From contig JBHGNT010000021.1 in assembly GCA_043228905.1 (NCBI GenBank), forward strand, positions 4,712,001 through 4,776,000: 64,000 bases of DNA. Direction: 5' to 3'. The position numbers and the translations under genes were made by a program. This stretch comes from Azolla caroliniana (taxonomy: Eukaryota; Plantae; Polypodiophyta). The notes under the pieces were generated by a model that was not told the origin of the DNA, made no database searches, and worked only from the letters and a program-made list of their open reading frames with translations. This document shows, one piece after another, positions 4,607-33,972 of the stretch (position 1 is the first letter of the stretch; each line of letters begins with the position of its first letter).

Positions 4607-6398
4607 GAACACTCTAGAATATTCTAGGTTATCCTACTAGAATGTAGAGTAATCTAGAAGATCTCTAGAGTATTCTAGAAGGTTCTAGTACACTCTAGAA
4701 TATTCTAGGTCATTCTAGAATGTATAGAATATTCCTATGATATTAGATTTCATATTCTAAAAACTATACATATAAAAATATTAATATAATGGTTAAGGAT
4801 TTGACATGTGTATAACAAGGTCGTGGGGTCAAATCCTTTCGAATCATAATGTGAGTGTCATGATCCTTTCGATGCATGATGTGAGTGTTATCATGACACT
4901 ATCCCCCTTCTTCGACGACACGTCTCACGGGTCGTAGGGTTTGTATTAGGACCTGGTTTACAAGGATATTGGCGATGAAATGCATTGACGAGTTATGCAA
5001 CATTGGAAAGATTTGAAGCAGGTTCCCAAGTTCGATCATTGGGGGTATAGCCTAGCTAATATAGCTTGTTGCGCATGATTTTAGAATCGAGAACGGCAGC
5101 AACTTCAAATTCAGGCCCATCCAAGAACTCGATAGGTGGTGGGGGTGTCGTAAGACGGCCCGGAATTGAACTTGTAGTATAAGGTTCCAAAAGGGATACA
5201 TGAAACACCGGATGAAGATGCATGTGCGGAGGGAGGTCCAGACGAAATGCAACATCACTTATCTTACCAGTGATCATGTAAGGGCCAAAACGTTGGTAAT
5301 CCAATTTACTGCAAGGTCGAGTGGTCTTGATGTTGTGTTGGAGAAGCCATACATGATCCCCAATGTGGAACTTTTTTGAGGAGTCTAGACGATGACGATC
5401 GGCAAGCCTCTTGTGTGTAAATTGAGCATCGTGCAAATTGTGGAGGATGTTAGCTTGAATTTCTTGGAGGCGACTAAGACTATCCTCGGCAGCAGGGTTG
5501 GTAGGAACGTCTGGATGCGCATTCATCGTCCACCGAGGATGACAACCCGTATTTGCAAAATATGGGGAATATCCTCTAGAAGAATGGGTTGAGTTGTTGT
5601 AAGCGAATTCTGCCAAGTGCAAAAAATCAACCCAATCATCTTGTTGATAGTTGATGAAACAACGAAGATATTGTTCCAATGTCTGGTTGGTACGCTCAGT
5701 TTGGCCATTTGTTTCAGGATGATAGCCCGAAGAAAGCTTAATAGAAATGTGAAGAAGTTTGAACATGTGCTTCCAAAACTTTGAGATGAATTGTGGACCA
5801 CGATCACTAATAATATCATCCGGCTGACCATGATTCTTAAATACCTCCCGCATAACGAGATCAACCGCCTCTTGACTAGTAATCGACTTTGTACATGGCA
5901 AGAAATGTGCCATTTTGGTAAATCGATCAACCACTGTGAGAATTGCATCAAAACCTTTTGAAACTGGGAGATCAGTAATGAAGTCCAAGGATATAGACTT
6001 CCAAGGAGTTTCCGGAATGGGAAGTGGTTGTAGGGTGAAAGCATGTGAGTGGAAACAATTAGCTATGTCCTTGACATAGCTAATTAGCTATGCAAAAAGC
6101 TACCATTGATAAATACTCATTTTAGTAAAAAGCCATCATTAATAAATTAACTATGCAAAAAACTACCATTGAAAATACTAGAGTGTTTTAATTACATATG
6201 TAAATGAGTGCCATAAATGTGCAACATAAACATGCAACATAAATTGATATGTGCACCATAAATGTGTACCATAAATTATATATCGAATTCCTAGGTCCAT
6301 TATGCATGATCCTTTGCCACATCACGTAGGCCATCTCTAGTTGAGTATTGTGGGTTAGTTGCTACCACTGTTGCTAAACCCTATCGAGTCCACCTACC

Positions 6399-6640
6399 GC
6401 CACTCTACACTCAGGGGCCGCTACTATGCGTTCCAAGCATCATCAAAGAGTTGCTCAATCTGACGGGGTTCTCTTCTCTTTGCCACTCTACACTCAGGGG
6501 CCGCAACTTTGCGTTCCAAGCATCATCAAAGAGCTGTTCAATCTGATGGGGTTCTCTTCTCTGTGCCACTCTACACTCAGGGGCCACTACTATGCGTTCC
6601 AAGCATCATCAGTAACTGTTCAATCTGACAGGGTTCTCTC
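6399..6640. repeat. ~2.5 tandem copies of an ~83-bp unit upstream of the transposase
   Basis: GCCACTCTACACTCAGGGGCC...GCGTTCCAAGCATCATCA recurs at ~6399, ~6482 and ~6565. Confidence 0.85.
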
Positions 6641-8214
6641 CTCCATTGCCATCATTCCAGACTCAATTGCTGCTACTGTCCAATCCTGGATTGCTTCCAC
6701 ATTTCGATTTGACGGAGTTCAGTCATCCAACGACAACATTCTACACTCAGTTGTCGCCATTGGTCGGTCCTGGATCGCCTCCTCAACTGTTCGATCCAAC
6801 GGAGTGAACTCCTCTACTATTCGGTCTTGGATTGCAATAACTTTTCTGTCTATTGATTATCTTGTGTATTGTTGTGTCTAATCTTGTGTATTGTGGAATA
6901 TTTTTGTGTATTGTTGTTGCCCATAGCCATCTTAAATACTTGTTTTTTTTCTGGAAATTTAGGGTTTTAATATGTCCAGCCAAATGGAAGGGGAAGAAGG
7001 GTGTTTAGAATTACCCGTCAATGATCATAAGGATAGGGATGATGCTATCAGGACACAACAAGCCATACGAAACTATTGGGCAGAAAAAAAAAGGAAACAT
7101 CGTCAATTGTTGAAGGATACGAAAGCCACACTCAGTAAAGGTAAGGATAGTTTAGCTGAGAATGTAAGTAATGCGACTACCATCATAGAGAGAAAGGTTG
7201 TAGACTATTTCAATGTTCAAACCAAGCACATCAGCAATGAAGAAAAGAAGGTAGTACTTTATGGAATAGGTAATGATCCATCGATAAAGGACTTAGTTGA
7301 TTGTGATGGTCTTAATGCAAACATATCATCTTCGTAAATAATCTATTTTAGTAAATAATCTTCGTAATAGTTTCGTATCCATGAGCAGATCAGAAGATGA
7401 TCTTTTCTTAAAAAGGTCTAGTCTAATGATGTTACTTAATAGTGATGTTTTGGATATAAACATCAGTGAGTTATCTAAGGTAATTGGTGTTAGTAGAAAA
7501 ACAGTGTACAATACAATGAACCGTATAATTTCCTCAGGTGAAGGAACTAGTCTACTAAAGCTAACTACAAGATGTAAGCCAATGACACCCATAACATTTG
7601 AAATCAAGGATGTAATCACAATGTTTTGGACTAATGAGAGTAGGGTTTCACCCAATAAAAAGGATTTATGCAGGAAACGTTGTCGTGCCTTTCGGCTCCG
7701 GATCGTTGCGTGAGTCGGGTGGGAACCACAGAGGTCTTGGACTAGGAGAAAGAAGTTCGTGAGATAGAGATTAATTATGAGTAACTAGCAAAGAGAAAGA
7801 TAAGAAACTCGTGAATCACACGAGCATACTATATTAATTGGTACTTAGGGTGTTAAGAAAGAAGTAGATGTATAAATCGTGAATCCCACGAATAATTTTT
7901 GTATTGATTAATTCCTAATCCAAATAATCAACAACCCTTTACATATTTCTCTCCTCCTTATATAAGGAAGGAAGAGCTAAGCATGGCTTCATGCTTTTTT
8001 TTTACAAAAAGTGTTCATGTCCACTAAATGTGCATGTGATGCTTTTTTTATTTCCTAAGTATAGGGCTCATGCACGCTAGATGTGCATGAGTTATTTTTT
8101 AGTGTCTCGTGTTTTTTCTTTTTCATATATTAAAGAAATACACGATTTACCTTTTAATAAAGGTATGCATAAATAAAGGTCTTATACATATTAAATCTAT
8201 ATTTAAAACACTTA

Positions 8215-8290
8215 AGATAATTTAATGTAATGGTAAGGTTGGGGTTTGTCAACGTGGAGGTGCAGAGTTCGAATCACGCCCTGCGCAGTA
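8215..8290 (+). promoter_or_regulatory. tRNA-like Pol III A/B-box module in the C LTR (copies near 20087 and 21078; relative at 62585-62650, minus strand)
   Basis: TAATGTAATGGTAAG (8223) ... GGAGGTGCAGAGTTCGAATC (B box at 8266); 43-nt spacing. Confidence 0.65.
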
Positions 8291-8475
8291 GTGAGTATTT
8301 CCTTTCTTTTTACATTTATGTCTCTTTATCCGGCTCTTCCTTGCCGGTATGCCGTTTCTTCCTTGACGGTATGCCGTTTTCCTCCTTGCCGGTATGCCGT
8401 TTTCTTCCGGTTCTCACCGAGCACTCCATTCTCTATCCGGAGGGACAAAAATATAATTTTCACATAGTGTGCAAC

Positions 8476-11400
8476 CTACACTACGACACTCGCCCCCTCC
8501 AAACCCGCACATCCTCCGGTATGTGCCGAAGTTCTTGATTCTTCGTATCCGTCTTCATCCGAAGCTTCCTCCGATTCTCCCCTTATGTCGACTATGAGTT
8601 GTAATCCACTTTCTTCGCTTCCCGCATCATTGTGGTCTTCGTCCGATTGCTCCTCGTTGTCGGCCTCGACTTGGATCACATAAGGTTTGTCGTCGGTCCG
8701 CTTCTTGAAAATCTTCACCCGCTTCCCGGCTATAGGCACTCGTAGTATTGTTCCATCCAACTCGGACAGTCGGTACGTCCCGTTGTCGAAGACCTTCCGA
8801 ACCTCGTACGGCCCGAACCATCTTTTCGCGAATTTCCGCATCGTTGTATGTTGATGGTCCAAGCTACTATCATAGACGATCACCCAATCTCCTTCTTCAA
8901 TCCTCCTCGGTCGTAGTCGGTGCTTTGTGTCGAACCGGCTTTTGTTCCGGAACCGTGCTTCGTGTTGTCGGCGTGACGCTTCCGCTACATCTTTCGGTCT
9001 TCCCTCCAGTTGTCGTATCCGGACCGCTAGTAGTTCTTCCCGGCTCATCTCTTCCTTCCACGGTAGTATTGTCCATGTCGCGATTGCGGTTTCCGTTGGC
9101 ATTACCGGTGCTTGTCCGGTCATGAGTTCTGCCGGCATGTAACCGGTCACGGAGCTATGCGTCGTCCGATCCGCCCATAGTGCATACGGAAGCATTTGTG
9201 GCCAATCCTTCACCCTTCCGTCGCATGCCTTCGCAAGTGCTTTCACGATCGGACTATGTCCTCGTTCGATCTTCCTGTTGGCCTCCGGATTGTAGGCCGT
9301 TGTCAACGTTAACCGAACTCCATGTTTGGCGAAGAATCCCCTAGCTTTGTCCGAGTCGAGTTCTCCCCGGTCCGCAATCACTTGTCCTACGCAGCCGTAC
9401 CTACAAAACACTTCTTCCAAAAGAAATTGGCACACCGCGGCACACGTTTTCCTCCGAAGCGCTCGACCTTCAACTTGGTTTGTGAGATCTTCTCGAGCTA
9501 ACACCAAGTATTTCTTTTGTCCAATCCCGGTCGGCATAGCTACAATGTCGACCATCCACTTGAAGTTGATTGTCGGTGAGAATGTCGGATGCAGCTCATC
9601 TCGGTGTCGGACCCCGGAGTAGACTTGACATTTCTCGCAGCTTTCTGTGAACTCCGCGACATCTTTTTACATGTTCTTCCACCAATATCTTTGCTTGATT
9701 TTCACAAAAGTTGCCCATGTTCCTCGATGTCCAGCCCAATCGGATTCGTGGAACTCGGACATTATCCGGTTTCGTTGTTCTTTCGTCCCGACTACTCGAA
9801 GTGGTATCCCATCCGGTCTTTTCGGCGTCCTCCATATTAAACCGTTTTCCAAGAAGAACTTTTGGACTTGCCTCTTCTTCCTTCGGATCTCGGCTCTCCT
9901 TTCTTTATCATTGGTTGAATCCTCGACCTCTTGTAGCATCTTCCCGATCATCAAGGTTTCCCCCTCGTATTCTTCTTCCCGGAATTCTCGGATCACGTTC
10001 ACTCGGCATATGTGTTCTGACGTGAAGTAGTCTTCGGAAACTTCTTCATTATCTGATTCGGTTATGTCGTCTTCAAACCGCGCCCTCGATAACATGTCCG
10101 CTACCGCGTTGTCCTTCCCCGAGATGTGTCGAACCTCCGGATTAAGTGACTTGACATATGCAATCCACCTTAGCATAGCCACATCCGGTATCGTACAACA
10201 CCGCATCATCCCGAGTATCGGAAGACAATCCGTCTCGATCACCACTTCAGCTCCGATCAAATAATCCCGATCCGATTTTATCGCCGACACGACTCCCCAC
10301 AATTCTCTTTTGACTTGTGCATATCCGCGTTGCCTTTCGTTGAGGACCTTTGCTCCAAATCGGATCGGATACCGCGAACCATCCGAGTCGGCTTGATTGA
10401 TGACCCACCCGATACCGGTTGGACTTGTATCAACTGTTACTATGATTGGCCGCTCGTAGCTTGGCTTCTTAAGTGATTCCGCCCTCCATAGTGTCTTCTT
10501 GAGCTTCCTCATGGCTTTAGTGTGTTCCGGTTTCCATTCGAATTTCTTACCTTTCCGCAACAAGTGATAGAGCGGGTCTGCTATATGTGCATAGTGCGGA
10601 ATCCATATGTGATAGAATGCACACGCACCCAGAAACCTTCGGACTTCCGATGTTGACTCACATACTTCCTTCATAGCTTGAATCGCATCGATCTTTGTTG
10701 GTGACGGTCTTCGGCCGTAGGGTCCACATAGATGTCCGACCACCAATATTTCTTCTTGCCCGAATGCCGATTTCTCCCCGGAAAGTGTTAGGTGCACATC
10801 TTCTAGCTTTCGCAACACTTTCTCGCAATCATGAATATGGTCGACCACGAACTTTCGGCATCCCCGATCATCCATAGTCTCATCTTTTTCTTCCACCGCG
10901 CATCCTTTCATCGGAATGTCATCTAGAAACGGCATCGTTATCTCCGGGATGCAATCTCGAAGCACCTTGTTCATCGCGTTCATCATATGTGCAACCGAGT
11001 TTGTCGCTCCTTGTGGTAGTGTGCACATTCGAACTAGTCCTATCGGTGTCCGCATGGTAGTGATGTCTCGGCTCTCCACGGCTAGTTGGAATTGGTCATA
11101 CCCCGAGTATAGGTCCCCGATGGAGTATATCGCACGTCCGGCAAAAGCTTCCGCGAATTCGTCCACTATCGGACCGACTCCCGAGTTCCGGATCGTGACC
11201 TTGTTCACCGGTTGCAAGTCTTGGATAAATCGGAGTGACCCATTCTTCTTCGGAACCGTAAACCATCGATTTGAGTACGGAGCACTTGATGGCTCTAGAA
11301 TCCCCATCGCCACCTTCTCCTTGAGCAAGTCGATGACTTTCGGAATATGCGCCCGTGGCACCGGAATCGGCTTCAGGTTCCACGGTACATGATCCATCGT

Positions 11401-12087
11401 GAAAATCACCATCGGCTCCACTATCTTTGGATCAATGCATCCGATCTCCCTCGATGTGAACGCGAATGCTTTGCCATGTTGCTCCAACATCTCTCGAAAC
11501 CGTTTTTCTTCTTCTTGTAAGAGGAACCCACCTCCACCGATCCGAAGTTTCTTCCGGGTCTCATCTGTGAATGCATGTCCGATATCCACGGACTTCCGAA
11601 GTGTCGGATCTCCCGAGACTTCTTTCTTCTTTTGTTCGCTATCGGCGGGTAATGGTCCCGCGGCCGGTTTCACCTTCTTCTCCACGGTCTTGTATTTCGT
11701 ACTTACCATTGCTTCTTCTTTGCGGAGCGCATCCGGCCCCATTTTCGCAACGATCTCGTACATCTCGACCGATTCCACCGGGACTACCCGGTTCCCTTGG
11801 CTTTTATCTTCCGCAAGCTCTTCAAGCCGTTGTAGTGTATTCCCATAGAACACTTCCTCGATCACTCCCACGATTTCTTCGTCTTCTTTTATTATTGATG
11901 CCGACCGTAACTTATCCTCCACTTGTCGGTATTGTTTCTTCATTCCTCCGGTTACGGCCGTGTACGTAGATGCCCCATCCGGGCCGATTCGTACTTGTTT
12001 TGCTCCGAGAGTTTTCTTCCTGTGTGGGGTATCAGGGCTTCTCGGACTATCACTTCCCCACTCCGCAACAGTCCGCTTTAAAAATCC
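8476..12087 (-). pseudogene. pol: pol of element C (RT-RNaseH-integrase) with one in-frame stop at 9667-9669; reached by a -1 frameshift from gag-PR
   Basis: ORFs 9667-11943 (PFLDDI RT, TVDTSPTGIG RH) and 8476-9555 (ADRGE, YNPEAN..IER integrase) are in the same frame, separated by a single TAA (compare WWPSMYKDV in element I). No chromodomain. Confidence 0.92.
12024..12087 (-). promoter_or_regulatory. Predicted -1 programmed ribosomal frameshift signal (G_GAU_UUU plus H-type pseudoknot)
   Basis: The slippery heptamer sits immediately before the gag-PR stop. After a 5-nt spacer, stem CGGACTGTTGC pairs with GTGATAGTCCG, and loop GTGGGG can pair with downstream CCCCAC. The -1 frame is open into pol. 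Confidence 0.8.
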
Positions 12088-13863
12088 ATTCTCACTTGGG
12101 ACAAGAGTTCCCTCTTGTTCCTTTCGTGATTTGCCGGCACCGTTAGGAATTGGACGGATTTCCCTCCGTTTTGGCTCCGAATTCGCGCAAAAGCCGCACC
12201 ACTATCGAGCACCTTCGTCTCCATCCGTGAAGCCGTGATAAAGGGTTGGCCGAGGATGACAGAATGTGAAACCTCATCCTGCACAAAGAAATTTTGGTCA
12301 ATTTCGACATCCCCGATCTTTACCGTCACATCCGGACAAGCCGCAAATAGGTCTTCTGTCGTTTTCGTGGCTGCCCGAATCTTCCATCCATGGTTGGTGT
12401 TTATAGGCCACTTCCCCTTTCGGTAGAACTCCTTGGACATCAAGTTGATCTCCGATCCGTGATCAATCAATGCTAGCACGGGTTCTTTGATGCTGCCGAT
12501 TCGGACCGGAGTCTCCGTAGTCGCACGTGCCCAGTGTGGCCTTGTATAGTGGGAGTTCGGAATTTCGCCTTCCACTTCGGTGTCGTTCATTGAAACGGTA
12601 TTTGCATTCACCCTTGGAGCATTTTCCTCCGTACTTTGTCTCTTCCTTTTCACGAGATCCACGAGAAGATCGTGAAACTCCTTCTTCGCTATTCCGAGTA
12701 GTTCCCGCAGCGAAAAATCTACCCGGCTATCCAAGATTCTTTCCTCGAACACTCTTTTCAAGTCGGTTTGTTGTTCTATGTCCGAGGCGAGCTTGAATGC
12801 CGGAGTCGCCTTTTCTTTTCCCTTACCTCCGGAGTTCCAGCTTTCCGGTATCTTCGATGGTCCGGCCGCATCCTCCGTGCGCCGTCGTTTCTCGTCCACA
12901 TACACCTCATGTAATTGACACAGGGCGTATATGCTATTCTTGTCGACAGGGCACTCCCATCCCGTAGCTTCCCGGACGCCTTCCGCGGTGTTTCGGATAT
13001 CGTTGGAGTCGGTTTTCTCGGTGTTTCCTAGCACCTCCGGCCAGAAAGACGCCTTCGCTCCCGTTGACTCCCCGACACATATTCCCGCGGTTGTCGCATA
13101 GTTGCTTCTTGCCGCTAACTCCTCCTCGAGCACCTTCTTCATGCCGCCTTTCCGGAAGTTCGGTCGGAGTGGCTTCCGAGAGTCCATCGAATGAATCCGG
13201 TTTCCCTCGTAGTAGATGAGATCCCGTCGTAGCGCCTCCTTATGGTCGTCGCAATCCCTCCGATCGTGTTCGGCGCTATCGCACCATATGCACCGTCGAT
13301 CCGTATATTTGGAGCTTGTGGGACGGTCATCCGACTTCTTCACCATCGCGATCTTTAGATTCTCCATCTCCTTCAGCAGCTGCTCCACCGTAGACGCGTC
13401 GACTCCCTTCTCGGCCGTAATCTCCCGAGCCCTCGGTTGATGGTCTTCCAGTCCCGTTCTCGGTTTCGGAATCAGTTCCGAAACCCTCTTTTCTTCGTTG
13501 GCAAGCCATTGCCCCCTCTTCGTGTACCGCGCGACGATATCCCGCACGCTTTCCCATGTTTCGGTGAGGCCGCTTTCGGTGGTCGTGTCCTCAAGAAGCA
13601 CTCCGAGATCTTTCCGGTCCCGGACGTCCACAGCTCGCAAAAACATGATGACTTTGTCCGGTGCAAGAATAGTTTGATCTCTCGCGGACAACCTCCCGAA
13701 CCGACTTTCGAATGTCGAAAACACTTCGAGGACCTTCAGCCCCTTACCTGACGTTTCCACCCAATCCTCGAATCCCCTCCGCGTTGCCTTGGAGGAGTCC
13801 TCGATGGCAAACGTGGTCTTTAACGCCTCTTCAAATGCTTCCCACGTCGGATTTTGTTGTTGC

Positions 13864-14126
13864 TGATGAAAACAATGCTCGGACACAACCGAGGAATAGG
13901 ATCAACTCACAGAAAACAGGAAATACAAAATGCACAAAACAATAGAGAGAAAGGTACGCTGGATGTTTTGCGTGGAAAACCCTAAATGGGAAAAACCACG
14001 GGAGTCCTCAAACTCCAAACTATCACTATGAACAGGGATGTACACTGGTGAAGCTACAAGGCAACAACCTTGAGCTCACTGTCTTCGCCACAGGCGGCGG
14101 CAATACACAGAGGCAACGACCTCTTC

Positions 14127-14157
<31 letters not shown>

Positions 14158-17100
14158 CTGCTCTCACTTTGCATAAACTGAGCAACAACAGTTAAACTGT
14201 TTGCCCTAAGTCATATTTATACACATATGACTTTCGGGCTTTTTACAAATATAGCCGCAGGGGCTCTTGGAAAACATATTCACAGATATGTCCCCGCATC
14301 CGGATCTCTCTCCGGGTACATTCATCATCCGGCTCCGTAACCGGGGTCTTCATCATCATCCGGCTCCGTAACCGGAACCGGGCTTGCCGTCATCCGGATC
14401 TCTCTCCGGGTACATTCGTCATCCGGCTCCGTAACCGCAACCGGGCTTGCCGTCATTCATCTCCGGACATCCCATCCGGAGGGACCGAAAATCCCAACAA
14501 ACTCCCCCTTCACTTCGGCATGGGATGTCTCTCCAACCCGATCCTCTTCCGGCATGCTTCCAGTTTGTCGGGTGTGAGCACCTTGGTCAGCATATCCGAC
14601 CCGTTCTCGTCCGTGTGGATCTTCGTCAGCACGAACTCCTTGTCTTCTATCCTTTCCCGGATCCAGTGGTATCTACGCTGGATGTGTTTCGTCCGGGAAT
14701 GGTAGGCCGCGTTCCTTGCAAGGTGGATGGCACTCTGACTATCGCAGTAGAGCCGGTACTCCTCCTGCCGGATACCGAGCTCTCTAATGAAGTCCTTCAT
14801 CCAAATTATTTCCTTGCCGGCTTCAACAGCTGCCATGTACTCCGCCTCCGTGGTTGACAACGCAACCGTCTTCTGCAGCCTCGACTGCCACGAAACGGCT
14901 CCCCCTGCATAGGTCATCACATACCCTGATGTGGACCGGCTGGTATCTGCATCAGCCGACATATCCGAATCGGTGAAGCCGTCGAGTTCGGGCTTACCGG
15001 AGCCGAATCGGAGGCACACGTTTGCAGTGCCCTTCAGGTATCGGAGTATCCACTTGACCGCGTTCCAGTGTTCTTTGCCAGGGTTGCTCATGTACCGGCT
15101 AACCACTCCGACTGCATATCCTATGTCCGGTCTCGTACACACCATGGCGTACATCAAGCTCCCGACGGCTGAGGCATATGGCACTTTCATCATATCCTCC
15201 TTTTCAGCCTTTGTCTTGGGACTTTGCTTGCTGGACAACTTGCAGTTTGCCGGGAGAGTTGATCCGACCGGCCTTGCTTCCGACATGTTGAACCGTTGAA
15301 GCACCTTTGTCACGTACTTCTCTTGTGACAGCCACAACTGCTTCTTGCTCCGGTCCCGGATGATGTGCATCCCTAGTATTTGTCTCGCCGGACCCAAGTC
15401 CTTCATTGAGAAGGTTCGGTGAAGAGCCTTCTTCAGCATCCGTATCTTGACCTGGTCCCGTCCGACGATCAACATGTCGTCCACGTACAGGAGGAGTATT
15501 AGAGAGTCTCCTCCTTCGAACTTCTTCACAAACACGCAGTGATCGGACTGCGTTTTGTTGTACCCTTCGTCGGTCATGAAGGAGTCGAACTTCCGGTACC
15601 ATTGCCGGGGAGCCTGCTTCAGTCCGTAAAGGCTCTTCTTCAACCGGCATACCAGGTGCTCCTTCCCTTTCTTCTCGAATCCATCCGGTTGCTGCATGTA
15701 GATCTCTTCCTCGAGGTCACCGTGAAGGAATGCCGTCTTCACGTCCATCTGTTCTACCTCGAGGTCCATGCTTGCCGCTATGCTCAGCACCGTCCGGATG
15801 GAGGTCATCTTCACTACCGGGGCAAATATCTCGTCGAAGTCGACGCCCTTCTTCTGCTGGAACCCCTTCACCACGATCCTGGCTTTGTATCTCGGGGGGT
15901 TTCCGGCATCTCCCGGTTTCAGCTTGAACACCCACTTGTTTCGAAGTGCCCGCTTTCCTTTCGGCAACTCCACAAGTTCATATGTGTGGTTCTCATGCAG
16001 GGAATCCATCTCGTCCTGCATGGCACTCAACCACCTGCGGCTCTGGGTGTCATGCTTTGCTTCTTCAAAGCTCTCCGGCTCCCCTTCGTCGGTCAGCAGC
16101 ACGTGCTCTGGTTCCGGAAATCTCCGGGGGGCCCTTCTCTCTCTTAGAGGATATCTCCGTTCCGGAGCTTCGGTAACCGGTTCTTCCGATTCTTCTTCAT
16201 CCGAATCCATTTCGGGATCGGGGCCGGTTCCGGTATCATTTTCATCTTCTTCGGCCGGTTCTGTTTCTTCACCGTCTTCGGCCGGATCCTCGAGTGCTAA
16301 CCGGTCTCTTGCCGGTCGGAACTGCTCCTCGTAGAGTTGATCCTCACTGGTCGACTTGGAGCTCTTCATCTTCTTCTCCGACTCCCAGTCGGCAAGTGTC
16401 TTGTCCTCCATGAAGATGATGTCTCGACTCCTGAATATCTTCTTGTCGACCGGGTCCCATACTCGGTAGCCGAACTCGTCGTCGCCGTAACCGAGGAATA
16501 TGCATGGCCGGGTCTTTGGATCTAACTTTCCTCTCCGGTCCTTTGCCACATGCACGTATGTGAGACACCCGAACACCTTCAGATGCCGGTAGGACACTTC
16601 CTTACCGGTCCACACTTTCTGCGGCGTGTCTCCGTCCAAAGGTACTGAGGGTGATCTATTTATCACATACGTCGCCGTCGACACTGCCTCAGCCCAAAAT
16701 CCCTTGGGTAGTTTCGCATGCGCCAGCATACTCCGGACCCTCTCCATTATGGTCCGGTTCATCCTCTCGGCCAGCCCGTTCAGTTCCGGCGTCTTCGGCA
16801 CAGTAAACTCGAGCCGGATTCCCTTCGAGCGACAGTACTCCTGGAACTGCCCCCGGTATTCCCCTCCGTTATCCGCTCGTATCGCTTTCAGCTTCTTGCC
16901 GGATTCCCTTTCCACTCTCGCGTGGAGTTCTTTGAAGATGGACAACACTTGGTCCTTTGTCTTCAACGGCGCCGTCCACAGCTTCCGGCTGTGATCATCA
17001 ATGAAAGTCACGAAGTACTGGGCTCCGCCATGTGACTTCGTTTCTACCTGACACACATCAGTGTGCACCAACTCCAATGGTGCGCTACGTCTCGTCGGTG

Positions 17101-19247: not shown

Positions 19248-19523
19248 GTTGCAACCCGTGGATACTCCCTTGAAGCCCGTCGGTCGCCACCCGGTTAAAG
19301 GATGTCACTTGCAGTCCTTCCGAAGCCCGGCACCGGAGCATCTCCGCCTTGTAGTCCTGCAAATATTGCGACACATCCTTACCATTAAATTGCCCGTTGC
19401 GTTGCACGAGCCGCTCTACTGATGCCGAAATCTCCGACATCGTGCGTTGTTCTTGAAGCATCCGTTCGAACATCGCCATCATATTGTTAGCTTGTTGAGC
19501 CTCCATCTCCTTGCCACCCGTCT

Positions 19524-19540
19524 TCACGTCGGGTTCACCA
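19524..19540 (-). promoter_or_regulatory. tRNA-Trp primer binding site (also at 50795-50807, 55125-55141 and 60301-60317)
   Basis: TGGTGAACCCGACGTGA is complementary to the plant cytosolic tRNA-Trp 3' end (..TCACGTCGGGTTCACCA, recalled from memory). Confidence 0.85.
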
Positions 19541-21464: not shown

Positions 21465-22105
21465 AGAAAAGCTAATTAGCTTATCAGTTACATTTACCTC
21501 AGTTACCTACTAGGATAGCTACTACATAGGTAACTGGCTACTCTCAATAGCTACTACCATGATAGCTAATTAGCTATTCTCAATAGCTAATTTAGGTACT
21601 ACCAAATAATTAGGTGTCCTGGTAGCTAGTTAGCTATTTCGTTATTACCAGCTATTTAGCTACTATGAAAGCTAATTAGCTACCATGATAGCTAATTACC
21701 TTACTAGGACAGCTAATTAGCCACCATGATAGCCAATTAGCTACCATGATAGCTAATTAGTTACTAGGAAAGCTAATTAGCTACCATGATAGCTAATTAG
21801 CTACTAGGAAAGCTAATTAGCTAATTAGTTACTAGGAAAGCTAATTAGCTACCGTGATAGCTAATTAGCTACCAAGATAGCTAATTAGCCACCATGATAG
21901 CTAATTAGCTACCATGATAGCTAATTAGCTACTAGACCAGCTAATTAGCTACCATGATAGCTAATTAGTTACTAGGAAAGCTAATTAGCCACCATGATAG
22001 CTAATTAGCTACTAGAATAGCTAATTAGCTACTAGAATAGCTAATTAGCTACTAGAATAGCTAATTAGCTACTAGGATAGTTAGCTAGTTACGAGAATAA
22101 CTAAT
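21465..22105. repeat. Array of palindromic TAGCTAATTAGCTA units (~20-bp period) filling the transposase intron
   Basis: Dozens of AGCTAATTAGCT copies separated by ACCATGAT, ACTAGGAA or ACTAGAAT spacers. Confidence 0.95.
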
Positions 22106-25100
22106 TCCCCTTTATTACGCAGGTCGATTTATTTATTAGGTTCAAACGAATGCATCCAACTATCAAAGTTCAACTACGAACATTTGAGTCTCTTAAGCCA
22201 CACTTTGTGAGACGCTTAAAGGATCGATACACATGTTGTTGCATTTACCATGTACAGATGGGTTTTCTGAAGGACTCTGTTAATCTACTATGTCACCATA
22301 GTGCATCCCTAACTAATACAGTTTACACATGTGGGTGCCCAATCTGTCGATCAAGCCCGCAAGAGGAGTGTAAATCATCTGAGCACGTTATCTCTTCCAT
22401 GAGTTATTTATTAGATTCAATATTGTGTCCGAGAGAAACTGACGCTATCTTCCATATTCATAAATGTGTCATGGGTTTATGTCAAGATTGTGGCCCTACT
22501 AGATTTAGGTGGTGTCCAAATGAATTGAGTAGTGAAATATTGATCTCTGTGAAGTTCTTTGAGTCAGTGAACACCAATTTCGAAGGAAAGGTGTGTAAAA
22601 GAAAGGAACTAGTTCGGAAGATGCTTAAACCAAGGGATTTGGTGTCTCTGTTTGTAGTATCTCTAGGAAAGTTCATTAAACACAACTTCATTTATTCATG
22701 GCAGGCCCATCAGTTTAAGACTTCCATATCTGATTTCCCAAATGATGTAGTAATATCAGTAGTAGATTTCGCAGAGAATTATACTTTCAAGCAGCAGAAT
22801 GAAATTCAATCTATGCATTGGTGTTCAGTTCAGGTAACCATTTTTGTGCACATAACATATTTTCGAGTTTCAGGTGATGTTAAAAAAGTAATTCATTTCT
22901 TTATTTCTGATGATAAGAAGCATGATACCTTGTTCGTCCAACACTGTTTTAAGTTACATTGGCAGTGGTTATTAGCTCAACGTTTGGAGCTTACTCAACA
23001 TTGGGTCTAGTCTGACGGAGCTGCGTCACAATTCAAGGCTCGACGTCCATTTTATTTTGTGGGGAGGTATCCTACTATAACAGGTTTGGAGATGAGATGG
23101 AATTTTTTTGGGTCTGGCCATGGTAAAGGTGAACATGATGGTGCAAGGGCTGTTATAAAGCGGGCACTTACCCATGAACAACTAAAGACAGATGGTGTGC
23201 ACATGAATTGTGCATCACATGTAGTTGAATTTTTAAGAACAAATATGTCAACGAGTGCAACAGGTGTTTATTCTTCGCAAGTCCGAGATATCAAACGTGA
23301 ATTTTGGGAAGTGAAGATAGATGAAGTAAATAGGGAGAAGACCTCGGAGTGCCAAGGAATTCCCGAATTGCGATCTCTGCATGCTGTTCGCGGTTATTCC
23401 AGGTTGGATGATCATTGTATTGCGGTTAGAGAATTGACTTGTTTTTGCTTCCATTGTGTGCAGGGAAATTGGAGATATTGTCTAAACAAAGCATACATTC
23501 AGAATTGGGAGTATCACACTCTGAATGATAAGGAAGCAGTTGATGGAGAAACAGGGTAGAATGCTGACTTCACATATCAAGGACTTGGAGATACTTTGAG
23601 TGATGTCCTGAACGTTGGGGAAAACTTCGTTGTAAATGCTTAAGAAGGCGATTCAAAGGGTGTTGATTTCTATATATTGAAGTGCGCGGTTAGTAAACAG
23701 TGTGCAAGGCAGAATATTGTAGATGCATGGGGAAATTTTGTATCTGCCGGGACATTCCACATCAAAGGCATTTTTTATGCAAAACTAGAATGAGTACGAA
23801 TATGTGTACAGGCTGTTAGAAGACAAACCAGCGGCATACATGTACTCTCATTTGGTCAGGTGCATCAACGTCCCAATGTCAGAATACAATAGCTGCTCAG
23901 GTTTATACACTGTTGGTGCTAATGTGTATGAATGTATTTACAATAGTATGCCATGGAATTTGTAGCTACAAGTAGCAATTACCATGTTCTCTTGTAAAAC
24001 AAACATGTATTTCGCGAAAACAGTTAAATAAATTCGTTTGAGAATCAATTTCTTGTATACAGTCTGCTTTCTGTGCTTCTTTCTCAATAAAATCATGTCT
24101 TTTTTGTTAAGTTTTAAGTTATAAGTTATAGCGAAATAGTCATCAGTAGCTAATTAGCTGTACAAATGCAGCTAATTAGCTGTCAATAGCTAAATAGTCA
24201 TCAATAGCATGAAATCAACAATCTGCAACATATTCCTCAAATTACACAATAGATAAGTACAGTGGGAACAAGTAATTAAATTCTTCATTGAATAATTTCA
24301 TCTCTTTACATATTTATAAATTACCATTGGAAATGTCTACAAATCTCCTATAAACAGCTAAGTTCTTGCTAGTCAGTGGAACAAGTCTACATATATTATC
24401 CGCATATCGATCTCGGTATGGAGTCCACAACCATGCACCTACTTGGCAGCTCACTGTTTGCACCAGGTACTGTTCAGGCATTTCCTCGGGTAGAATGAGA
24501 CAGCATCTCCGAATATTGAAGTAGTGCTGAAAATGTTCTGTATCCAAAATCAATGTATTGTTGGCATTATATTCAGGCCAAGTAGCCCAAAAATCAGAAA
24601 GTCTCTTGAATCTTGCAGCTTCCATTTGCTCACAATTTTCTCGTGCCCATTGACCTTTAAAACGACTTCGCCATTTTGGGAAGAATCTTGCTAAACGCTT
24701 CCACACATCTGATTTTGGTTTTTCACTCCAAATAAACAAATCAAAGTATTGCACAGCCCACTCTAGAAACTGATTCGCGTCCCTCCTTGGCTACATATAT
24801 CTCACACTCATCAAGACTTTATCAAGCTCCAAGATCAAGGCTCTTCTTTCGACTTCTAGTGGTTTAGGTTTCCATTCCTGAAACTGAGCCGCTGTTACAC
24901 CATTTTTTGGTAGGACACGATCAATCTCAATCAGCTCAAGTTCGGCCGACACAATTGGCGTCCTTTTCCTTTTCAAACCCCTAGTCGACTGTGTTGGGCT
25001 TGGCTTCACATTCTGGTGCTCTTGTTTTGTCAACTAAGTTATCAATCCTTGGATTACCTCGGTGCATATAGCTACTGATCTGCTCGATATCAATCCACTG

Positions 25101-26129
25101 GTATCACATGTTGCATCTACCTGCAACACCAAGTCATCCGTGCAACGTGCTGCATCTACCTGCAACACCAAGTCATCTGTGCAACATGCTTGATCAACTT
25201 GTGTGACCAGATCACTTCTGTCAGTTGCTACATCTACTTTCAAGATGGGGCCCTTTAAACATGCCACAACATCAATAGTATCCACACTGCCATTCGCCTT
25301 GCGAGCAATAGAATCAAACCCTTTAGACTCTGCAACATCAAAAAACACCAACATATTCACACTCACAAAGTAACTAACAGTCTCACAAAACAACATCCTG
25401 AACATCAAAGAGTTTCAGTCATAGAACAACACTCTTCAAATTATCTTGGAAAAACATCATAGAGTTCCATTACATAATGTGGATCAAGTAACAACCAATC
25501 TGAGGTTTTACTTGTCCAACAGGATAGTAAAACTTCATAAAACCCTATAAAAATCCCTAAGCTAACAATCAAATCCAACTAAACAGTATTTCGCTCCACT
25601 ACGTCTGGGCCCCTTAACCGAGTAACTGGTCTTGTTCCCGATCGTGGCCCCTTCTTCAGCCTTTTTCTTGCCGGTTGCTCATTTAGCCTTGCTTCTTTCA
25701 CCCAATGCGCAAGAGTGTCCTCCTCCGACAACCTTCCCATCACCTCAACAGCTAATTGCACATCAGTCGTTTCTTGAACTAGCTTTTCAAGTACAGATGG
25801 ATCTGTTTGGACATTTTCAGTAGTTGGGCTCGGTGGGGTGGAATCAAGGTCTTGAGATTCCAAGAAATGTTGCATCAAGTGTTCATAAACACTGTTGTTG
25901 TGAACCTCAGTTTTACATGTTGTTTCCACTATTTCATGGCATTTCACATCTTTGCCTAATTCAGTACATTGTTCCAAAAGAATAGGGTGGAGCTGATCTG
26001 AAGGAGATGTGATAGCAGGACTCTTACTTTCAGCCACGTTGGCAGCAGTATCCTCATCAGTTGCAGCGTCATCAGCACCAGACACATCATGTGCCATCCT
26101 TAATCCACAAGATTCTACAATAACATGGC

Positions 26130-27720
26130 AGCTATTTAGGATAGCTAATTAGCTAGTACGATAGCTAATTAGCTAGTACGATAGCTAATTAGGATAGCTA
26201 ATTAGCTACTTTACTCAACTATGGTAGTAGCTAGGATACCTAATTAGCTACTATGGTAGCTAATTAGCTACTTTACTTAATTATGGTAGTAGCTAGGATA
26301 GCTAATTAGCTACTTTACTCAACTATGGTAGTAGCTAGGATAGCTAATTAGCTACTTTACTAACTATGGTAGCTAGGATAGCTAATTAGCTACTATGGTA
26401 GCTAATTAGCTACTTTACTCAACTATGGTAGTAACTAGGATAGCTAATTAGCTACTTTACTCAACTATGGTAGTAGCTAGGATGGCTAATTATCTACTAT
26501 GGTAGCTAATTAGCTACTTTACTCAACTATGGTAGTAGCTAGGATAGCTAATTAGCTACTTTACTAACTATGGTAGTAGCTAGGATAGCTAATTAGCTAC
26601 TATGGTAGTTAATTAGCTACTTTACTCAACTATGGTAGTAGCTAGGATAGCTAATTAGCTACTTTACTCAACTATGGTAGTAGCTAGGATAGCTAATCAG
26701 CTACTAGGATAGCTAATTAGCTAGTAGGATAGCTAATTAGCTACAATGATAGCTAATTATCTACTTTCTCAACTATGTAGTAGCTAGGATAGCTAATATT
26801 CTCAACTATGTAGTAGTTAGGATAGCTTATTAGCTACTAGGATAGCTAATTAGCTGCCAGTAGCTAATTAGCTGCCTGTAGCTAATTAGCTACTAGGATA
26901 GCTTATTAGCTACTAGGATAGCTAATTAGCTGCCAGTAGCTAATTAGCTGCCTGTAGCTAATTAGCTACTAGGATAGCTAATTAGTTGCTAGTAGCTAAT
27001 TAGCTGCCTGTAGCTAATTAGCTACTAGGATAGCTAATTAGTTGCTAGTAGCTAATTAGCTAGTAGGATAGCTAATTAGCTTTTTTACACAACTATGGTA
27101 CTAGCTAATTAGCTAGTACCATAGCTAATTAGCTACTAGGATAGCTAATTAGCTGCCAATAGCTAATTAGCTACTAGGATAGCTAATTAGCTACCAATAG
27201 CTAATTAGCTACTAGGATAGCTAATTAGTTGCCAATAGCTTATTAGCTACTTTACACAACTATGACAGTAGCTAATTAGCTAGTAGGATAGCTAATTAGC
27301 TACTATCCTAGCTAATTAGCTAGTAGGATAGCTAATTAGTTGCCAGTAGCTAATTAGCTAGTAGGATAGCTAATTAGTTGCCAGTAGCTAATTAGCTAGT
27401 AGGATAGCTAATTAGCTACTTTACACAACTATGGTGCTAGCTAATTAGCTATGAGTAGCTAATTAGCTAGTAGCTAACTAGCTGCCAGTAGCTAATTAGC
27501 TGCCAGTAGGATAGATAATTAGCTAGTAGCTAACTAGCTGCCACTTAGCTAATTAACTACTGTAGTAAACTATGGCAGTAGCTAATTAACTAATAGGATA
27601 GCTATTAGCTGCTTTAATCAACTATGGTAGTAGCTAATTAGCTACAACAATAGCAACAAAATAGTTTCCATACTTTTTACGGCTTAGCTAATTAGAAAAG
27701 ACTAAGCTTATTAGCTACAG
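26130..27720. repeat. ~1.6-kb array of palindromic TAGCTAATTAGCTA units in a probable intron of the second gene
   Basis: Same 14-mer as at 21465-22105, with higher-order spacers (CTTTACTCAACTATGGTAGTAGCTAGGA; GCCAGT). Confidence 0.95.
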
Positions 27721-29134
27721 TATGGTATACCTGTTAGTTTTCTCCACTCATTTGGTAGAGTTGTACTACAATCTCCCAAACAGAATGCAGCAATTCGATA
27801 GGCATGTTGAAAACAAAGCAGATGGTATGTGTGGTTGCATGGTTGTAGGTGAACCAACAAAGACGTAGTTTTGTCCTCCACACCTAACCCGCTTGAACTG
27901 TCAATAAATCATTTTCTGGTTCTCCTTCATTTGGTAAGGGAGCAAGAATGTTCAGGTCCAAATCCTGTCTGGTCCTTACCATTGCCTCCACAAAATGTAG
28001 CTGCTTCTTAAGGCAACTAACTACCTGTTCTTGATGAATGTATTGTTCCTTCAACGCAACAGAGAAATTTACCGATTAATTATTCCTGTTGTTGAAAGAT
28101 ACACCAACTTTGCTCAGGAATCGTTAACTTACTTGAAGCTTATCCAAATTGTAATCTGCAATAGTATTTACACCTAGAAGGTCCAGGTTCATTGAAAGAA
28201 CCTGGATCTCTATTTGCAGTTATATTTTACGTTGGGGATCCAGATACCCCTCTAATTCAAGCTCCTGTTGCGCAACCTATTCCAGATAATGCTTGATTAG
28301 CACATTTTACCCTTATAGTTATTTATAACACAATCACATACCGGCAAAACAATAGTTACCTGAATCTTATTTCTAATCGTTGTAACAGCGGAAGTAACTT
28401 TGGTCTCCATTGTAGAAGCCATTGTGGCTTTCTCTAAATCAGTCTTAAAAAATGCCAATGTCTCACAGGCTTCATGGACATTTTTTAGCATATAGCTAAC
28501 CAATGTCTCACCTGTATCTTCAACATTGGCTTTCCTTCGGTGTCGGTGTGGTGTATGCCCTTGGTCTTGCTGGGAGTCGACAATTGCATCAACAGCTGCC
28601 ATGCTCCAAAATCTATCTATTTTTTGTGCCAAGGTGCCCATCTTTTTATCGATGCCTCACCATAGACTGCCCAAGCTACCCTATACATTTCAAGGTCTCT
28701 GGATTCCTTCACTGTTTTGTAATACTCATATGCAAATGCTCTAACAAATGAAATTGACAACTCATTGTTGACTGGGATCTCCTGATGAACTTTCTGGTGC
28801 AACCTCATGCCGTCATCGTACAAGTCGGCTCGTACATGCTTCAGCTTGACCTTGCCTTTGACTCTAGGCATTGTATATACTGTCATCCAGTCTACATCAC
28901 TGATCAATTTATCACTTAGGACAGCAGGGTCAACACCCTCGAGTGACAGACCATAGTTGTTGTGGAAGTCCTCCTTTGTCTCGCAAAATTTTGCAAAGTT
29001 TAGCACTCTCGGATACGGAGGAACGAGCCATCTGAAATATCATTTCAAAAATCAGAAATAGTGCAAAATCAGAATATGTCAGAATCAAAAACCCCAATCA
29101 ACAACAACAGAAATAGTGCAAAATCTTTAACTTA

Positions 29135-29590
29135 GCAAATTAGAAACCCTAATCATAATTTGTATTCAGAAATTTGAAATCAGAAACCCTAATCAAAATC
29201 TGTAATCAGAAGTTTGAAATCAGAAACCCTAATCAAAATCTGTAATCAAAAGTTTGTAACCAGAAACCCTATTCAGAAATTCTAATCAGAAATTTATAAT
29301 CAAAAACCCTAATCAGAAATTTATAATCACAAACCCTAATCAGAAATCCTAAACAGAAATTTATAAACAAAAACCCTATTCAGAAATTCTAATCTATAAT
29401 CAAAATTTGTAACCAGAAACCCTATTCAAAAATTCTAATCAAAAATTTATAATCAAAAACCCTAATCAGAAATTTCAATCAAAAACCCTAATCAGAAATT
29501 TCAATCACAAACCCTGATCAGAAATTCTAATCAGAAATTTATAAACAAAAACCCTAATCAGAAATTTCAATCAAAAACCCCAATCATCAC
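29135..29590. repeat. Telo-box-containing minisatellite (AAACCCTAATCAGAAATTT..) in the probable first intron of the second gene
   Basis: More than 10 degenerate AAACCCTA(A/T)TCA(G/A)AA units. Confidence 0.85.
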
Positions 29591-32500
29591 TAAAGACAGG
29601 ATTAAACACAAAAAAAGTAATATAAACACACCTGCTGCTACTCCCCGATCTGCAAGACATCCTTGTATGGGACTCCAAGGACTTCGCCCTATTCGATTTT
29701 GGGGAAATATGAATCGGCACCAAAGTTCAGACAGTAATCAAAAAGAAAAAACAAATGTTTGGGGTTTCTGTAATTGAAACATACCTGGACGATGATCGAG
29801 CGGGTTCTGTGTTGTAGCTCTCAATCTGCAATGTCGATTTTATGTTGCTGCGGGAGCTACGTCTACGTTCGTGCTCTGAGTACTCCATCTGCGTTCAAAA
29901 TCAAACTTAGGCTAAACAGGAAATTGATGACATTGAAGTCGACCTTAGATGATGGTGCTATTCCCCAAGTTCCACTACGTCTGAAACAGAAGTTCAAATA
30001 TTTGAGTTTTTTCATAAATTAGTTTTTCAAATATTTGATTTTTCCACAAAAAAGACTAGCTAAACAAATAGCTAATTAGCTATGGCCATTTTAGTAGCTA
30101 ATTAGCTATAATAGTGTTTCCACTCGCATGTTTTTACCATGTAGTAAGCCATAGGATCGGTGACGAGGACTCTTTGATCGACAACATATATCACAGCTAC
30201 GAACATACTCCTCAACAAAATGACGAAGGCGAGGCCACCAATAGCGTCAAGAAATTAATTCTAGAGTCTTGCGAACTCCAAAATGACCAGCCATTGGTGA
30301 GTCATGGCAATGTTGTAAAACTTGTAGCCGTGAGGGACCATCAGGAACATACAATAGATTTTGTCGAAATAGAAAACCACCATGCCAATAGAACTGACAA
30401 TAGTCATTACGAGGATTTTTCGACCGTGAGCAAGAAGCACGATCCAGGATGATATGATCCAAAACATCCTTGGCGAAATCATCAGTGGCCATATGATCTC
30501 GAATGGAATCAAGAAGAGTGGAATTTTCAAGAGTTGTTATGGCGTTAACTACCATTAATCGTAATCGATTAGGACCCAAAAGGATTTGTTTTTTATGCTC
30601 AAATGCAGGTTCCCCTGGACGAAGTTCCATATGAGAGTGCCGAGAAAGAGCATATGTTTTGCCTTGCTGCATCCCAGGGCGATATATGATGATAAAGTCG
30701 AAGTGAGTCAAAAATTGCGCCCACCGGGCTTGATGCCGACTCAAGACTCGAGCATTTTGGAAATAAGTCAAGTTCTTATGATCATTGTAGACAATGATCT
30801 GCTGAGAAGAACCTTCTAGAAAATGTCGCCATTGTTGAAAGAATCCACGATTGCAAGAAGCTCTTTGTCATGGATCTCATAGTTGATCTCTACAGCTTCA
30901 AACTTTCGTGAATGAAAGGCGACAGGGTGTAGTTGTCCATCATCTCCAGTCTGCGAGAGGACACTCCCTAGTGCAAAATCGGATGCATCGGCTTCGAGGA
31001 TGAAGCGTTTTGTTGGGTCAACATGTGCTAAGATAGGTGTCGTTGTAAATGCTCGTTTTAAGCTTTCAAATGCATCGTCTACATCTGAACTCCATATAAA
31101 TGGTTGATCTTTATGTGTGAGCTGAGTAAGCGAAAGCACAACCTTGGAATAATCTTTAATAAATTTTCGATAAAAATTTGCAAACCTAAGAAAACATTGC
31201 ACATCACGCACTGAAAGGAGCGTTTGCCACTCTAAAATTGCTTGTACCTTCATGGGGTCCATAGCAATACCATCTGATGATACAACATACCCCAAAAATT
31301 CCACTTGATTCTGGCCAAAACTACACTTTTCTAATTTTGCGTAGAGACCATATTCTCAGAGTCGACGCAGTACCTGATGAACATGTTCGTCATGCTCCTC
31401 TTGGGTCTTCGAGTAGATTAAAATATCATCTAGGTAATTTATAGTGAAGATATCAAGAAAATCTCGAAAAATATCGTTTGCCATATGTTGGAAAACAACA
31501 GGTGCATTCGTGATACCGAATGGCATCATTGTATACTCAAAATGTCAATAGCGAGTGCATAAAGTTGTCTTCCATTCATCCCCCAGGCGAATCCGAACCA
31601 GATTATATGCTCCACAAAGGTCCAACTTCATGAAATATTTTGCACCACTGAGACATTCCAAAAGATTCGAGATTAATGGTAGAGCATATCTATTCCGGAT
31701 AGTTACTTTGTTTAGCCCTCTATAATCCATGACCAACCGAAGAGTCCCATTCTTCTTCTTAACGAAGAAGATAGGTGCACCAGCAGGGGATCTAGAATGC
31801 CAAATGAATCCATTTGCCAGATTCTCATCAATATATTCCTGCAAAGTCTCTAGCTCTACAGGGGAGAGATTATAAATTGGGCCCCATGGAGGTTCTTTCC
31901 CTGGTTGTAAGTCAATAGGGCAGTCGTATGGTTGATGCTCCGGCAATGTATTGGCCTTCACCTTATCAAAGACATCTGAAAACTCCTTGTATTTCTCTGG
32001 TAGTTTAATGTCCGCTTCACGTCAAGTGGATGATGGAGTTGCTACTATTGCGAAGACGAACATGGGCTCGTTGCCCCCTTCCTCCCGCAACTGTCGTAAA
32101 GAGATGGTCGATAACTCCGGGGATCTATTATCACATGTAGGAGAGAGGGATGCGGGGTTTGTGCTTTTTTCCCAGGTCTCCTCAATTGTTCTTTTCATCC
32201 AATCAATCTTTGGGTTATGGAGTTCAAACCAAGGGAGACCTAGAACTATTGGGTGTTCTGGACTACGAATAATGTTGAAAGAGATTATGCTTGCCAAATC
32301 GCCAAGAACTATCCTAATTGGCTCGGACTCCTCGACTATATCTCCTAATGCTATGGGATGTCCATCAATGACTCCTACGGCTACTGGGTTGGGAAGCTTA
32401 TTCAAGAGGATGTTTTGTGACAAGGCAAATTCACGATCCATGAAACAAGAGTTGGCTCCAGAATCTAGGAGGGCAGAGGCTAGGACTCGATGACATGTAG

Positions 32501-33803: not shown

Positions 33804-33972
33804 AAATTGGTTCAAACTGTCAAGACTGAGAGAGAGAAAGAGAGATAGAGAGATAGAGAGATAATTGAAAGAGAATTATTATATTGAAGAGTAAAATGGA
33901 TTACAAAGAGTAGGCTACAAAATGGCGTTGAACCAATTTAGGTTTGGGATGGGTGGTAGATCCCTATTTATA
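33804..33972 (-). promoter_or_regulatory. Self-priming PBS of element B, with its LTR complement and TATA box
   Basis: On the element strand, TTGAACCAATTT (33815-33804) just after the 5' LTR is complementary to AAATTGGTTCAA (33939-33928). That complement starts 25 nt downstream of TATAAATA (33972-33965). No tRNA-type PBS is present. Confidence 0.8.

Follow-up and report, generated by a model that had tools for sequence, protein, structure and literature searches.

In a 64,000-nucleotide stretch of the genome of the fern Azolla caroliniana (GenBank assembly GCA_043228905.1, contig JBHGNT010000021.1, positions 4,712,001 to 4,776,000; hereafter the window), the segment 6033..30139 on the plus strand is, with little doubt, a Sola2 cut-and-paste DNA transposon with the anatomy mapped below. 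It carries a transposase gene and a second gene (gene 2), convergent to the transposase on the minus strand and under purifying selection. The window copy is dead and belongs to a young family of about 380 copies. As for the complete explanation, in which gene 2 is a maintained accessory gene whose product would dock on palindrome arrays and act against host silencing, we regard its chances as about even.

Element boundaries

The limits of the element were drawn from its terminal inverted repeats (TIRs), its target-site duplication (TSD), and comparison with ten full young copies of the family. The 25-bp TIRs lie at 6033..6057 (plus strand) and 30115..30139 (minus strand) and share 21 of 25 bases; the 4-bp TSD TGTA flanks them at 6029..6032 and 30140..30143. 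The surrounding host sequence is a Gypsy pol gene, with a portion of its integrase beyond the insertion at 5056..6028 (minus strand) and the remaining pol at 30144-32669. The integrase frame is open through the empty site when a single TGTA is retained, which confirms the boundaries and the TSD proposed in a first-pass annotation of this DNA. The same annotation had described 25-bp TIRs starting with GGG; the length and the left end stood, but the right TIR of the window copy reads TGG. Sola2 TIRs terminate, as a rule, in GRG. Since the family ends in GGG on both left and right, matching at 24 of 25 positions, TGG is a change peculiar to this copy. Subtraction of the nested retrotransposons gave a net size of 10,440 bp, in line with the two-gene element of ~10 kb described at first; the further opinion that such a size is atypical did not hold, as the portion of the literature available to us places most Sola elements at 2–9 kb and some above 15 kb. 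Stops and frameshifts were found in the transposase and gene 2 alike. A single subterminal palindrome accompanies the left TIR (at 6077), two accompany the right TIR (at 30069 and 30095), and an 83-bp tandem repeat in three copies lies upstream of the transposase (6399..6651, plus strand).

Copy number and age of the family

Genomic copies were collected by TIR search, as had been suggested with the first-pass annotation. Genome-wide, the TIR-end patterns with at most one mismatch matched 383 left and 378 right ends; the reversed controls gave 0, so the end matches are not due to chance. For a pairing sample, a partner right end was sought within 40 kb of 72 left ends listed on six contigs (C1-C6). 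At least 49 of the 72 were paired among the matches listed, paired-end counts being a lower bound; within the same listed matches, the median length was 11,720 bp, and 35 of the 49 pairs measured 10.1–12.7 kb. A 4-bp TSD was present in 30 of 30 copies (10/10 full young copies and 20/20 further paired copies), and the duplicated sites were AT-rich (77% AT vs. 59% in the flanks).

The ten full young copies differed from one another by 0.2–0.9%, and in five of them, all six tested coding segments were stop-free. The best 131 of 1189 candidate transposase matches were all 96–100% identical, and in exon 2 of the transposase, the window copy was 97.6–97.9% identical to the ten young copies. Two older subfamilies had transposases 76–82% identical to that of the young family. 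In protein searches of the same genome, in which the best candidates were scored, the young family and the older subfamilies came out on top and no separate family was found. Two points weigh against this picture: the ten full copies were picked for an open exon 2, that is, copies were selected for intact ends or frames, and one older diverged copy had no matching TSD.

Paired ends 3.6–9.0 kb apart on contigs C1-C4 delimit shorter copies, probably derived by internal deletion, whose TIRs and TSDs are intact. The older copy L075/L076 (contig C11, ~6352900-6361950), with a transposase ~76% identical to that of the young family, identical TIRs, and no matching TSD, had a higher synonymous divergence in gene 2 exon 2 (0.58–0.73) than in the transposase (0.26–0.33), hinting at mosaic subfamilies.

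Transposase

The transposase is encoded in two exons of about 250 and 613 codons, both on the plus strand. The 5' part of exon 1 (6972..7680) contains a helix-turn-helix (HTH)-like region below the Pfam cut-off; its frame is broken near 7340, and it is severed by a Gypsy insertion from the 3' end of the exon (21348..21401), which is followed by a predicted GT donor. Exon 2 (22123..23965) encodes a Cys-rich region, a DDD RNase H core, and a C-terminal BAH-like domain, and in the window copy, it has several stops and one frameshift. The four motifs noted in the first-pass annotation were all found: DFAENY at 22765-22782, EIQSMHW at 22801-22821, SDGAASQFK at 23011-23037, where it comes immediately after a stop codon in this copy, and GHGKGEHDG at 23116-23142. 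The catalytic triad is D221, D304, and D345, numbered on the 619-aa frame of intact copies; of 117 homologues in the alignment, 109, 115, and 98 had the respective Asp, and most of the others had a gap there. Sola2 motifs were counted in 95, 106, and 85 of 110 homologue cores.

Compared by eye, the motifs agree one by one with the published Sola2 alignment (PMC3627910, Additional file 10): DF(A/S)ENY, EIQSxHW, SDGxxxQ(F/Y)K, and HGKGxxDG, together with the upstream SP-x-KKD and Cys-rich motifs. Short TIRs and AT-rich 4-bp TSDs are shared as well; the part of that paper available to us gives a 4-bp TSD for Sola2. The predicted transposase structure (predicted local distance difference test, pLDDT, 89.8) contributes an RNase H fold: residues 197-399 of the model match integrase and mariner RNase H folds with Z 9–10, root-mean-square deviation (rmsd) 3.0–3.5, and ~150 aligned residues. 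The Sola2 identity assigned in the first-pass annotation is thus upheld by motifs, TSDs, and fold. A Foldseek search gave only weak RNase H matches, and a Pfam scan assigned the core to no family. The Azolla family differs from described Sola2 in its length of ~11.7 kb, its two intron-containing genes, the BAH-like C-terminus, the palindrome arrays, and its membership in a plant-wide clade.

The BAH-like domain occupies about 23578-23935. Within the whole model, residues 492-615 aligned with eight BAH entries (DNMT1, MTA1, DIM2, EBS, ZMET2, ORC1b, ORC1, and AIPP3; Z 6.3–6.8, rmsd 2.8–3.8, 78–96 aligned residues), and we predict a C-terminal BAH-like, chromatin-reading tail. Against this prediction stand the middling Z values, the blank result of a Pfam scan of the BAH-like tail, and the lack of a named cluster for the transposase tail in the ESM Atlas.

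Plant lineage of the transposase

Named homologues of the transposase came from an alga (Klebsormidium), a liverwort (Calypogeia), a moss (Ceratodon), and conifers (Cryptomeria and Taxus). A tree was built from 110 of 117 rows, most of them unlabelled, with 7 short cores left out. It contained an 83-row clade with support 100/98 that united the query with these five plant taxa and placed the labelled animals outside. A profile built from plant sequences detected the BAH-like tail in all five plant taxa and in none of the six labelled animal proteins. Since the plant clade excludes the labelled animals and the tail occurs in all five plant taxa, the transposase, judged by its sequence, is a member of an old plant-wide Sola2 lineage.

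Vertical loss and horizontal transfer had been named as the alternatives to be distinguished. A recent transfer of an animal Sola2 into the plant would fit the animal proteins (Mytilus, Liolophura, and Holothuria) found among the transposase matches at 27–31% identity, as well as the youth of the family in the A. caroliniana genome. The well-supported plant clade argues against it, as does the tail distribution, and in a set of 27 chosen rows, grouping of the query with five labelled animals was rejected (p-AU 3.5e-10; approximately unbiased test). We consider such a transfer extremely improbable. Most tree rows are unlabelled, and transfer between plants, or at a very early date, may have occurred. 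Two animal-side Sola2-like proteins (P0091 and P0093) have a weak C-terminal match to an OTU protease (E 0.007–0.04), another ubiquitin-related add-on.

The occurrence of Sola2 in a plant, presented in the first-pass annotation as a surprise in itself, is not one. According to the available part of a 2026 preprint (10.64898/2026.07.23.736688), Sola2 is the most abundant DNA-transposon superfamily in Cupressus sempervirens, and SOLA is reported for Azolla in the part of PMC6786969 that we could consult, in whose supplement a search returned only Solanum-type matches. The resemblance of both cases to the present family lies in abundance in non-flowering plants, and the comparison rests on abundance only. 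Two reviews, to the extent accessible, mention chiefly Sola of mosses.

Structure, splicing, and selection of gene 2

All gene 2 exons lie on the minus strand. Two first exons with ATG were delineated: exon 1a (29785..29888), which is predicted only and has a GT donor in phase with exon 2, and exon 1b (29632..29660), which is continuous with exon 2 in the contigs of two sequencing runs. Exon 2 (28360..29031, frameshifted in the window copy) encodes a conserved N-terminal domain of no known family (N-domain), exon 3 (28133..28276) a putative helical or coiled-coil region, and exon 4 (27731..28048, disrupted in the window copy) a RING-H2-like finger. The predicted alternative last exons are exon 5 (25579..26114), with an acidic tail, a basic motif, and a stop, and exon 6 (24314..25329), with a 13-aa tandem unit, a basic motif, and a NIF/UBLCP1-like domain. 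Five exons join in phase via GT-AG introns into a frame of ~600 codons that stops in exon 5. The acceptor of exon 6 has the phase of the RING exon donor, so that the gene probably ends alternatively in exon 5 or exon 6.

Contigs of runs X18 and X19, from a related organism, omit exactly the predicted 78-nt GT-AG intron 2 and run from exon 2 directly into exon 1b, giving two splice junctions. The intron 2 donor was retained in nine of the ten young genomic copies and in the window. One further stretch that was examined contained no splice junction.

Ratios of non-synonymous to synonymous divergence (dN/dS) against the two older subfamilies were 0.22/0.26 for the N-domain, 0.24/0.18 for exon 3, 0.34/0.53 for the RING exon, and 0.52/0.48 for the NIF domain, with bootstrap intervals below 1 against both subfamilies for these four segments. 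The acidic exon gave 0.58/0.57 and the transposase, for comparison, 0.36/0.32. Against a closer third copy, the intervals included 1 for most gene 2 segments. We hold it as highly probable that gene 2 is functional. Several observations weigh against this gene model and its maintenance: X18 and X19 belong to one study of a related organism, and their RNA status is guessed; the spliced contig follows exon 3 for 42 nt before its sequence becomes unrelated; a RING-to-NIF junction was not seen in the RNA contigs examined; exon 5 terminates in a stop codon; and the dN/dS intervals for the acidic exon and the linker include 1 against one older copy. In addition, a 59%-identical relative (L057) had no N-domain or NIF match in the 2.4 kb downstream of its transposase, where the contig ends; a convergent open reading frame in L057 was likened to exon 5 by eye only and was not counted.

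Domains and relatives of the gene 2 protein

The NIF domain matched PF03031 at 30.9 bits (cut-off 21.8) over the domain. With a widened profile, UBLCP1 (PDB 3shq) was the best relative (E 1.5e-24), and a narrow five-sequence profile found no relative in the PDB. As in UBLCP1/SCP1/FCP1 phosphatases, the Ser of motif II, the Lys of motif III, and the first Asp of motif IV are retained, but the catalytic DxDxT site reads ELDKV in all five close family sequences, so that the nucleophile Asp is Glu; Ceratopteris sister proteins likewise have Glu at this position. An Asp-to-Glu change at the nucleophile inactivates phosphatases of this type, and the domain is likely to be catalytically dead. Only 7 of 91 related NIF domains had DxD, with 24 unread, and 50 of 91 formed a wider DxN group.

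The RING exon has the C-x2-C, C-x-H-x2-H-x2-C, and C-x3-C elements, which are similar in Adiantum proteins, and a RING-like finger is predicted on this pattern. Three RING-type Pfam matches all fell under the cut-off (E 0.09–0.24), which counts against the assignment. The N-domain was blank in Pfam, and its predicted model, built from three sequences, reached pLDDT 35; this, too, weighs against the role proposed for it below. ESM Atlas matches of the N-domain to dynamin GED showed low recognition and were set aside as a helical artefact. The copy number of the 13-aa tandem unit ranges from 1 to 4.

All of the nearest named relatives of gene 2 were gene models of ferns: five Ceratopteris loci, which their locus tags place on four chromosomes, and models from two species of Adiantum; for a quick tree of these relatives, 21 long-branch, gappy, or near-identical rows were dropped. 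In Adiantum P0168, an N-domain match (38%, E 1e-23) is followed by a match to the RING exon (31%, E 4e-10) and a C-terminal NIF, the order seen in gene 2, and P0197 and P0231 also combine RING and NIF-like parts. In two Hibiscus gene models (P0204 and P0211), a related DLNG-type NIF domain is joined to Ulp1 protease and HMG-box parts, possibly a separate capture by another type of transposon.

Gene 2 might instead be cargo captured from the host, a set of Pack-type fragments that does nothing for the element. The wider DxN group, of which its NIF domain is a member, includes a conserved Sphagnum gene, and the catalytic motif is lost, as would suit a captured fragment. Such cargo is difficult to reconcile with dN/dS below 1 over four segments between transposon copies, introns that join in phase, splicing in a relative, the same domain order in Adiantum, and a NIF exon in 10/10 full copies, and we think it highly unlikely. 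The first-pass annotation had called a second, convergent gene atypical: the gene is present and its domain content is unusual, yet a second gene in a Sola element has precedent in the portions of the literature available to us. Sola2-Fanzor1 of amoebozoa carries a Fanzor (PMC3627910), and Sola1-1_Ec32 of Ectocarpus carries on the opposite strand a ParB-methyltransferase proposed to modify its own element (PMC12477816). These elements resemble the Azolla family as large Sola with an accessory gene; unlike them, gene 2 has an N-domain, a RING-like finger, and a pseudo-phosphatase and no nuclease or methylase.

Palindrome and other repeat arrays

The palindrome TAGCTAATTAGCTA, mostly with a 20-bp period, forms an array in the transposase intron (21554..22080) and a second one in gene 2 intron 4 (26140..27654), and further sites lie beside the left and right TIRs. 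With one mismatch allowed, there were 74–124 occurrences per young copy and 0 in the remaining 53.6 kb of the window. A spacing of 20 bp dominated (580 intervals, the next most frequent 105). The two arrays are almost free of CG, with 2 and 3 observed against 20 and 49 expected. In the 59%-identical relative, the corresponding transposase intron contains a related TAATTAG array. An Rfam search gave no match. Gene 2 intron 1 contains a telo-box-like array (29138..29586) with 11 AAACCCTA motifs, found also in the young copy that was read; telomere-repeat factors of the host could perhaps dock there.

Nested and neighbouring retroelements

A nested Gypsy element (7681..21347, minus strand) interrupts transposase exon 1, with a 4-bp TSD ACGT at 7677-7680 and 21344-21347. 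It has three 808-bp long terminal repeats (LTRs; 7681-8488, 19545-20352, and 20536-21343) with 1–3 differences and contains a Copia element (13864-19247) with a 5-bp TSD GTTGC. The stretch 20353-20511 duplicates the internal sequence adjoining the first LTR, and 20507-20535 duplicates 29 bp of the flanking transposase; the third LTR with these duplicated stretches points either to duplication by template switching or to an artefact of assembly. Tandem units of ~270 bp with GA runs at 3380-4904, with a related copy at 33818-34284 across the host Gypsy, are likely its LTR region. Plus-strand frames of a non-LTR-type reverse transcriptase (RVT_1) occur at 57067-59560, amid more nested LTR elements at 44700-64000.

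Discussion

From its family membership and TSDs, the DDD transposase pairs the TIRs, excises the element, and reinserts it with a 4-bp stagger, as is established for the family. Gene 2 would give two isoforms with a common N-domain and RING-like finger, one closed by the acidic exon and the other by the phosphatase-like exon. The N-domain may bind the 20-bp-phased palindromes, the dead phosphatase would hold a phosphorylated partner, for example, the RNA polymerase II tail or a silencing factor, and the RING-like finger would ubiquitinate the partner so held. By analogy with VANC, we tentatively propose that the gene 2 product docked on the arrays counters host silencing, a proposal that we rate below even.

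The analogy draws on the accessible part of PMC5735166, where VANC binds short motifs arrayed in tandem within introns and terminal regions and has variable tandem peptides. The VANDAL elements of Arabidopsis, which are Mutator-like elements (MULEs), have, like the Azolla family, an accessory gene, intronic and terminal motif arrays subject to turnover among relatives, and variable tandem peptides, here the 13-aa unit. The family is nevertheless of another superfamily, with Sola2 motifs, a 4-bp TSD, and no MULE match in Pfam, and Pfam revealed no VANC similarity. Two results count against palindrome binding by gene 2: no DNA-binding domain was identified in it by the Pfam scan or in the N-domain model of pLDDT 35, and the transposase has an HTH-like region while palindromes adjoin both TIRs, for which reason the transposase itself may be the palindrome binder.

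The latter possibility leads to another explanation, in which the transposase binds the arrays through its HTH and their TAATTA core and activates itself or is retained on its copies. The gene 2 product would then work away from the DNA: as an E3 ligase fitted with a phospho-binding module, it would eliminate a restriction factor of the host or drive turnover of the transposase. The HTH-like match in exon 1, the subterminal palindromes, and the lack of a recognised DNA-binding fold in gene 2 agree with it. So does the persistence of the array core in the transposase intron at 59% identity, in a contig where the N-domain was not found; that contig, however, ends 2.4 kb past the transposase, and absence of the N-domain is not established there. 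The larger palindrome array, moreover, sits within gene 2. We judge this explanation unlikely.

Gene 2 could also be a transposition cofactor that binds both the terminal and the internal palindromes and assists the transposase in pairing the TIRs. TnpA of CACTA elements and the Myb protein of Harbinger are cofactors of this kind. A palindrome lies within about 20–45 bp of both TIRs, selection maintains both gene 2 and the transposase, and the likely alternative last exons are reminiscent of CACTA. Most palindromes, on the other hand, are deep in introns, 2–9 kb from the ends; the RING-like and phosphatase-like domains suggest signalling over DNA bridging; and, to our knowledge, most Sola2 elements have been described with the transposase as the sole gene. 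We regard a cofactor role as rather unlikely.

Returning to the anti-silencing proposal, an elaborated form would be a fern Sola2 system independent of VANC and assembled from captured chromatin-signalling parts, with an array-docked protein in which a dead CTD-phosphatase (CTD, C-terminal domain) would act as a decoy or substrate clamp and a RING would eliminate or disable a silencing factor of the host, and with a BAH-like tail of the transposase reading chromatin, the whole mimicking the host BAH-CPL2 module. The available part of the description of the BAH-PHD-CPL2 silencing complex (10.1101/2020.10.15.341198) shows the same pairing of BAH and CTD-phosphatase domains, and the BAH fold of AIPP3 matched at Z 6.3. 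The complex is an active repressor, whereas here the phosphatase is likely dead and nearest to UBLCP1, and the domains would lie on two separate proteins, so that the likeness is an analogy only; we consider this form decidedly improbable. Other literature consulted, likewise in part, is PMC10741241, PMC9033089, PMC5751038, PMC4455052, and 10.1101/2021.09.26.461848.

Neither the presence of Sola2 in plants nor a second gene in a Sola element is new, and the Azolla family may already be catalogued. No Sola element with RING or phosphatase cargo was described in the titles and abstract openings searched, a body of literature outside Repbase, Dfam, subscription journals, and bioRxiv supplements. 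What is new is the anatomy: the content of gene 2, the BAH-like tail, and the palindrome arrays.

In the accessible part of a survey of 1007 plant genomes, Ginger and Sola together made up 9 of 3203 recently active clusters (PMC12973397). Active Sola is thus rare in surveyed plants, and the Azolla family, young, numerous, and with open-frame copies, would make a plant Sola2 directly assayable. The family also places Sola2 as an old plant-wide lineage that, as predicted, bears a BAH-like tail. If gene 2 does counter silencing, a pseudo-phosphatase and a RING would be doing the work of VANC by a second, unrelated route, and a set of gene models annotated in ferns as 'FCP1 homology domain' would be explained as transposon genes.

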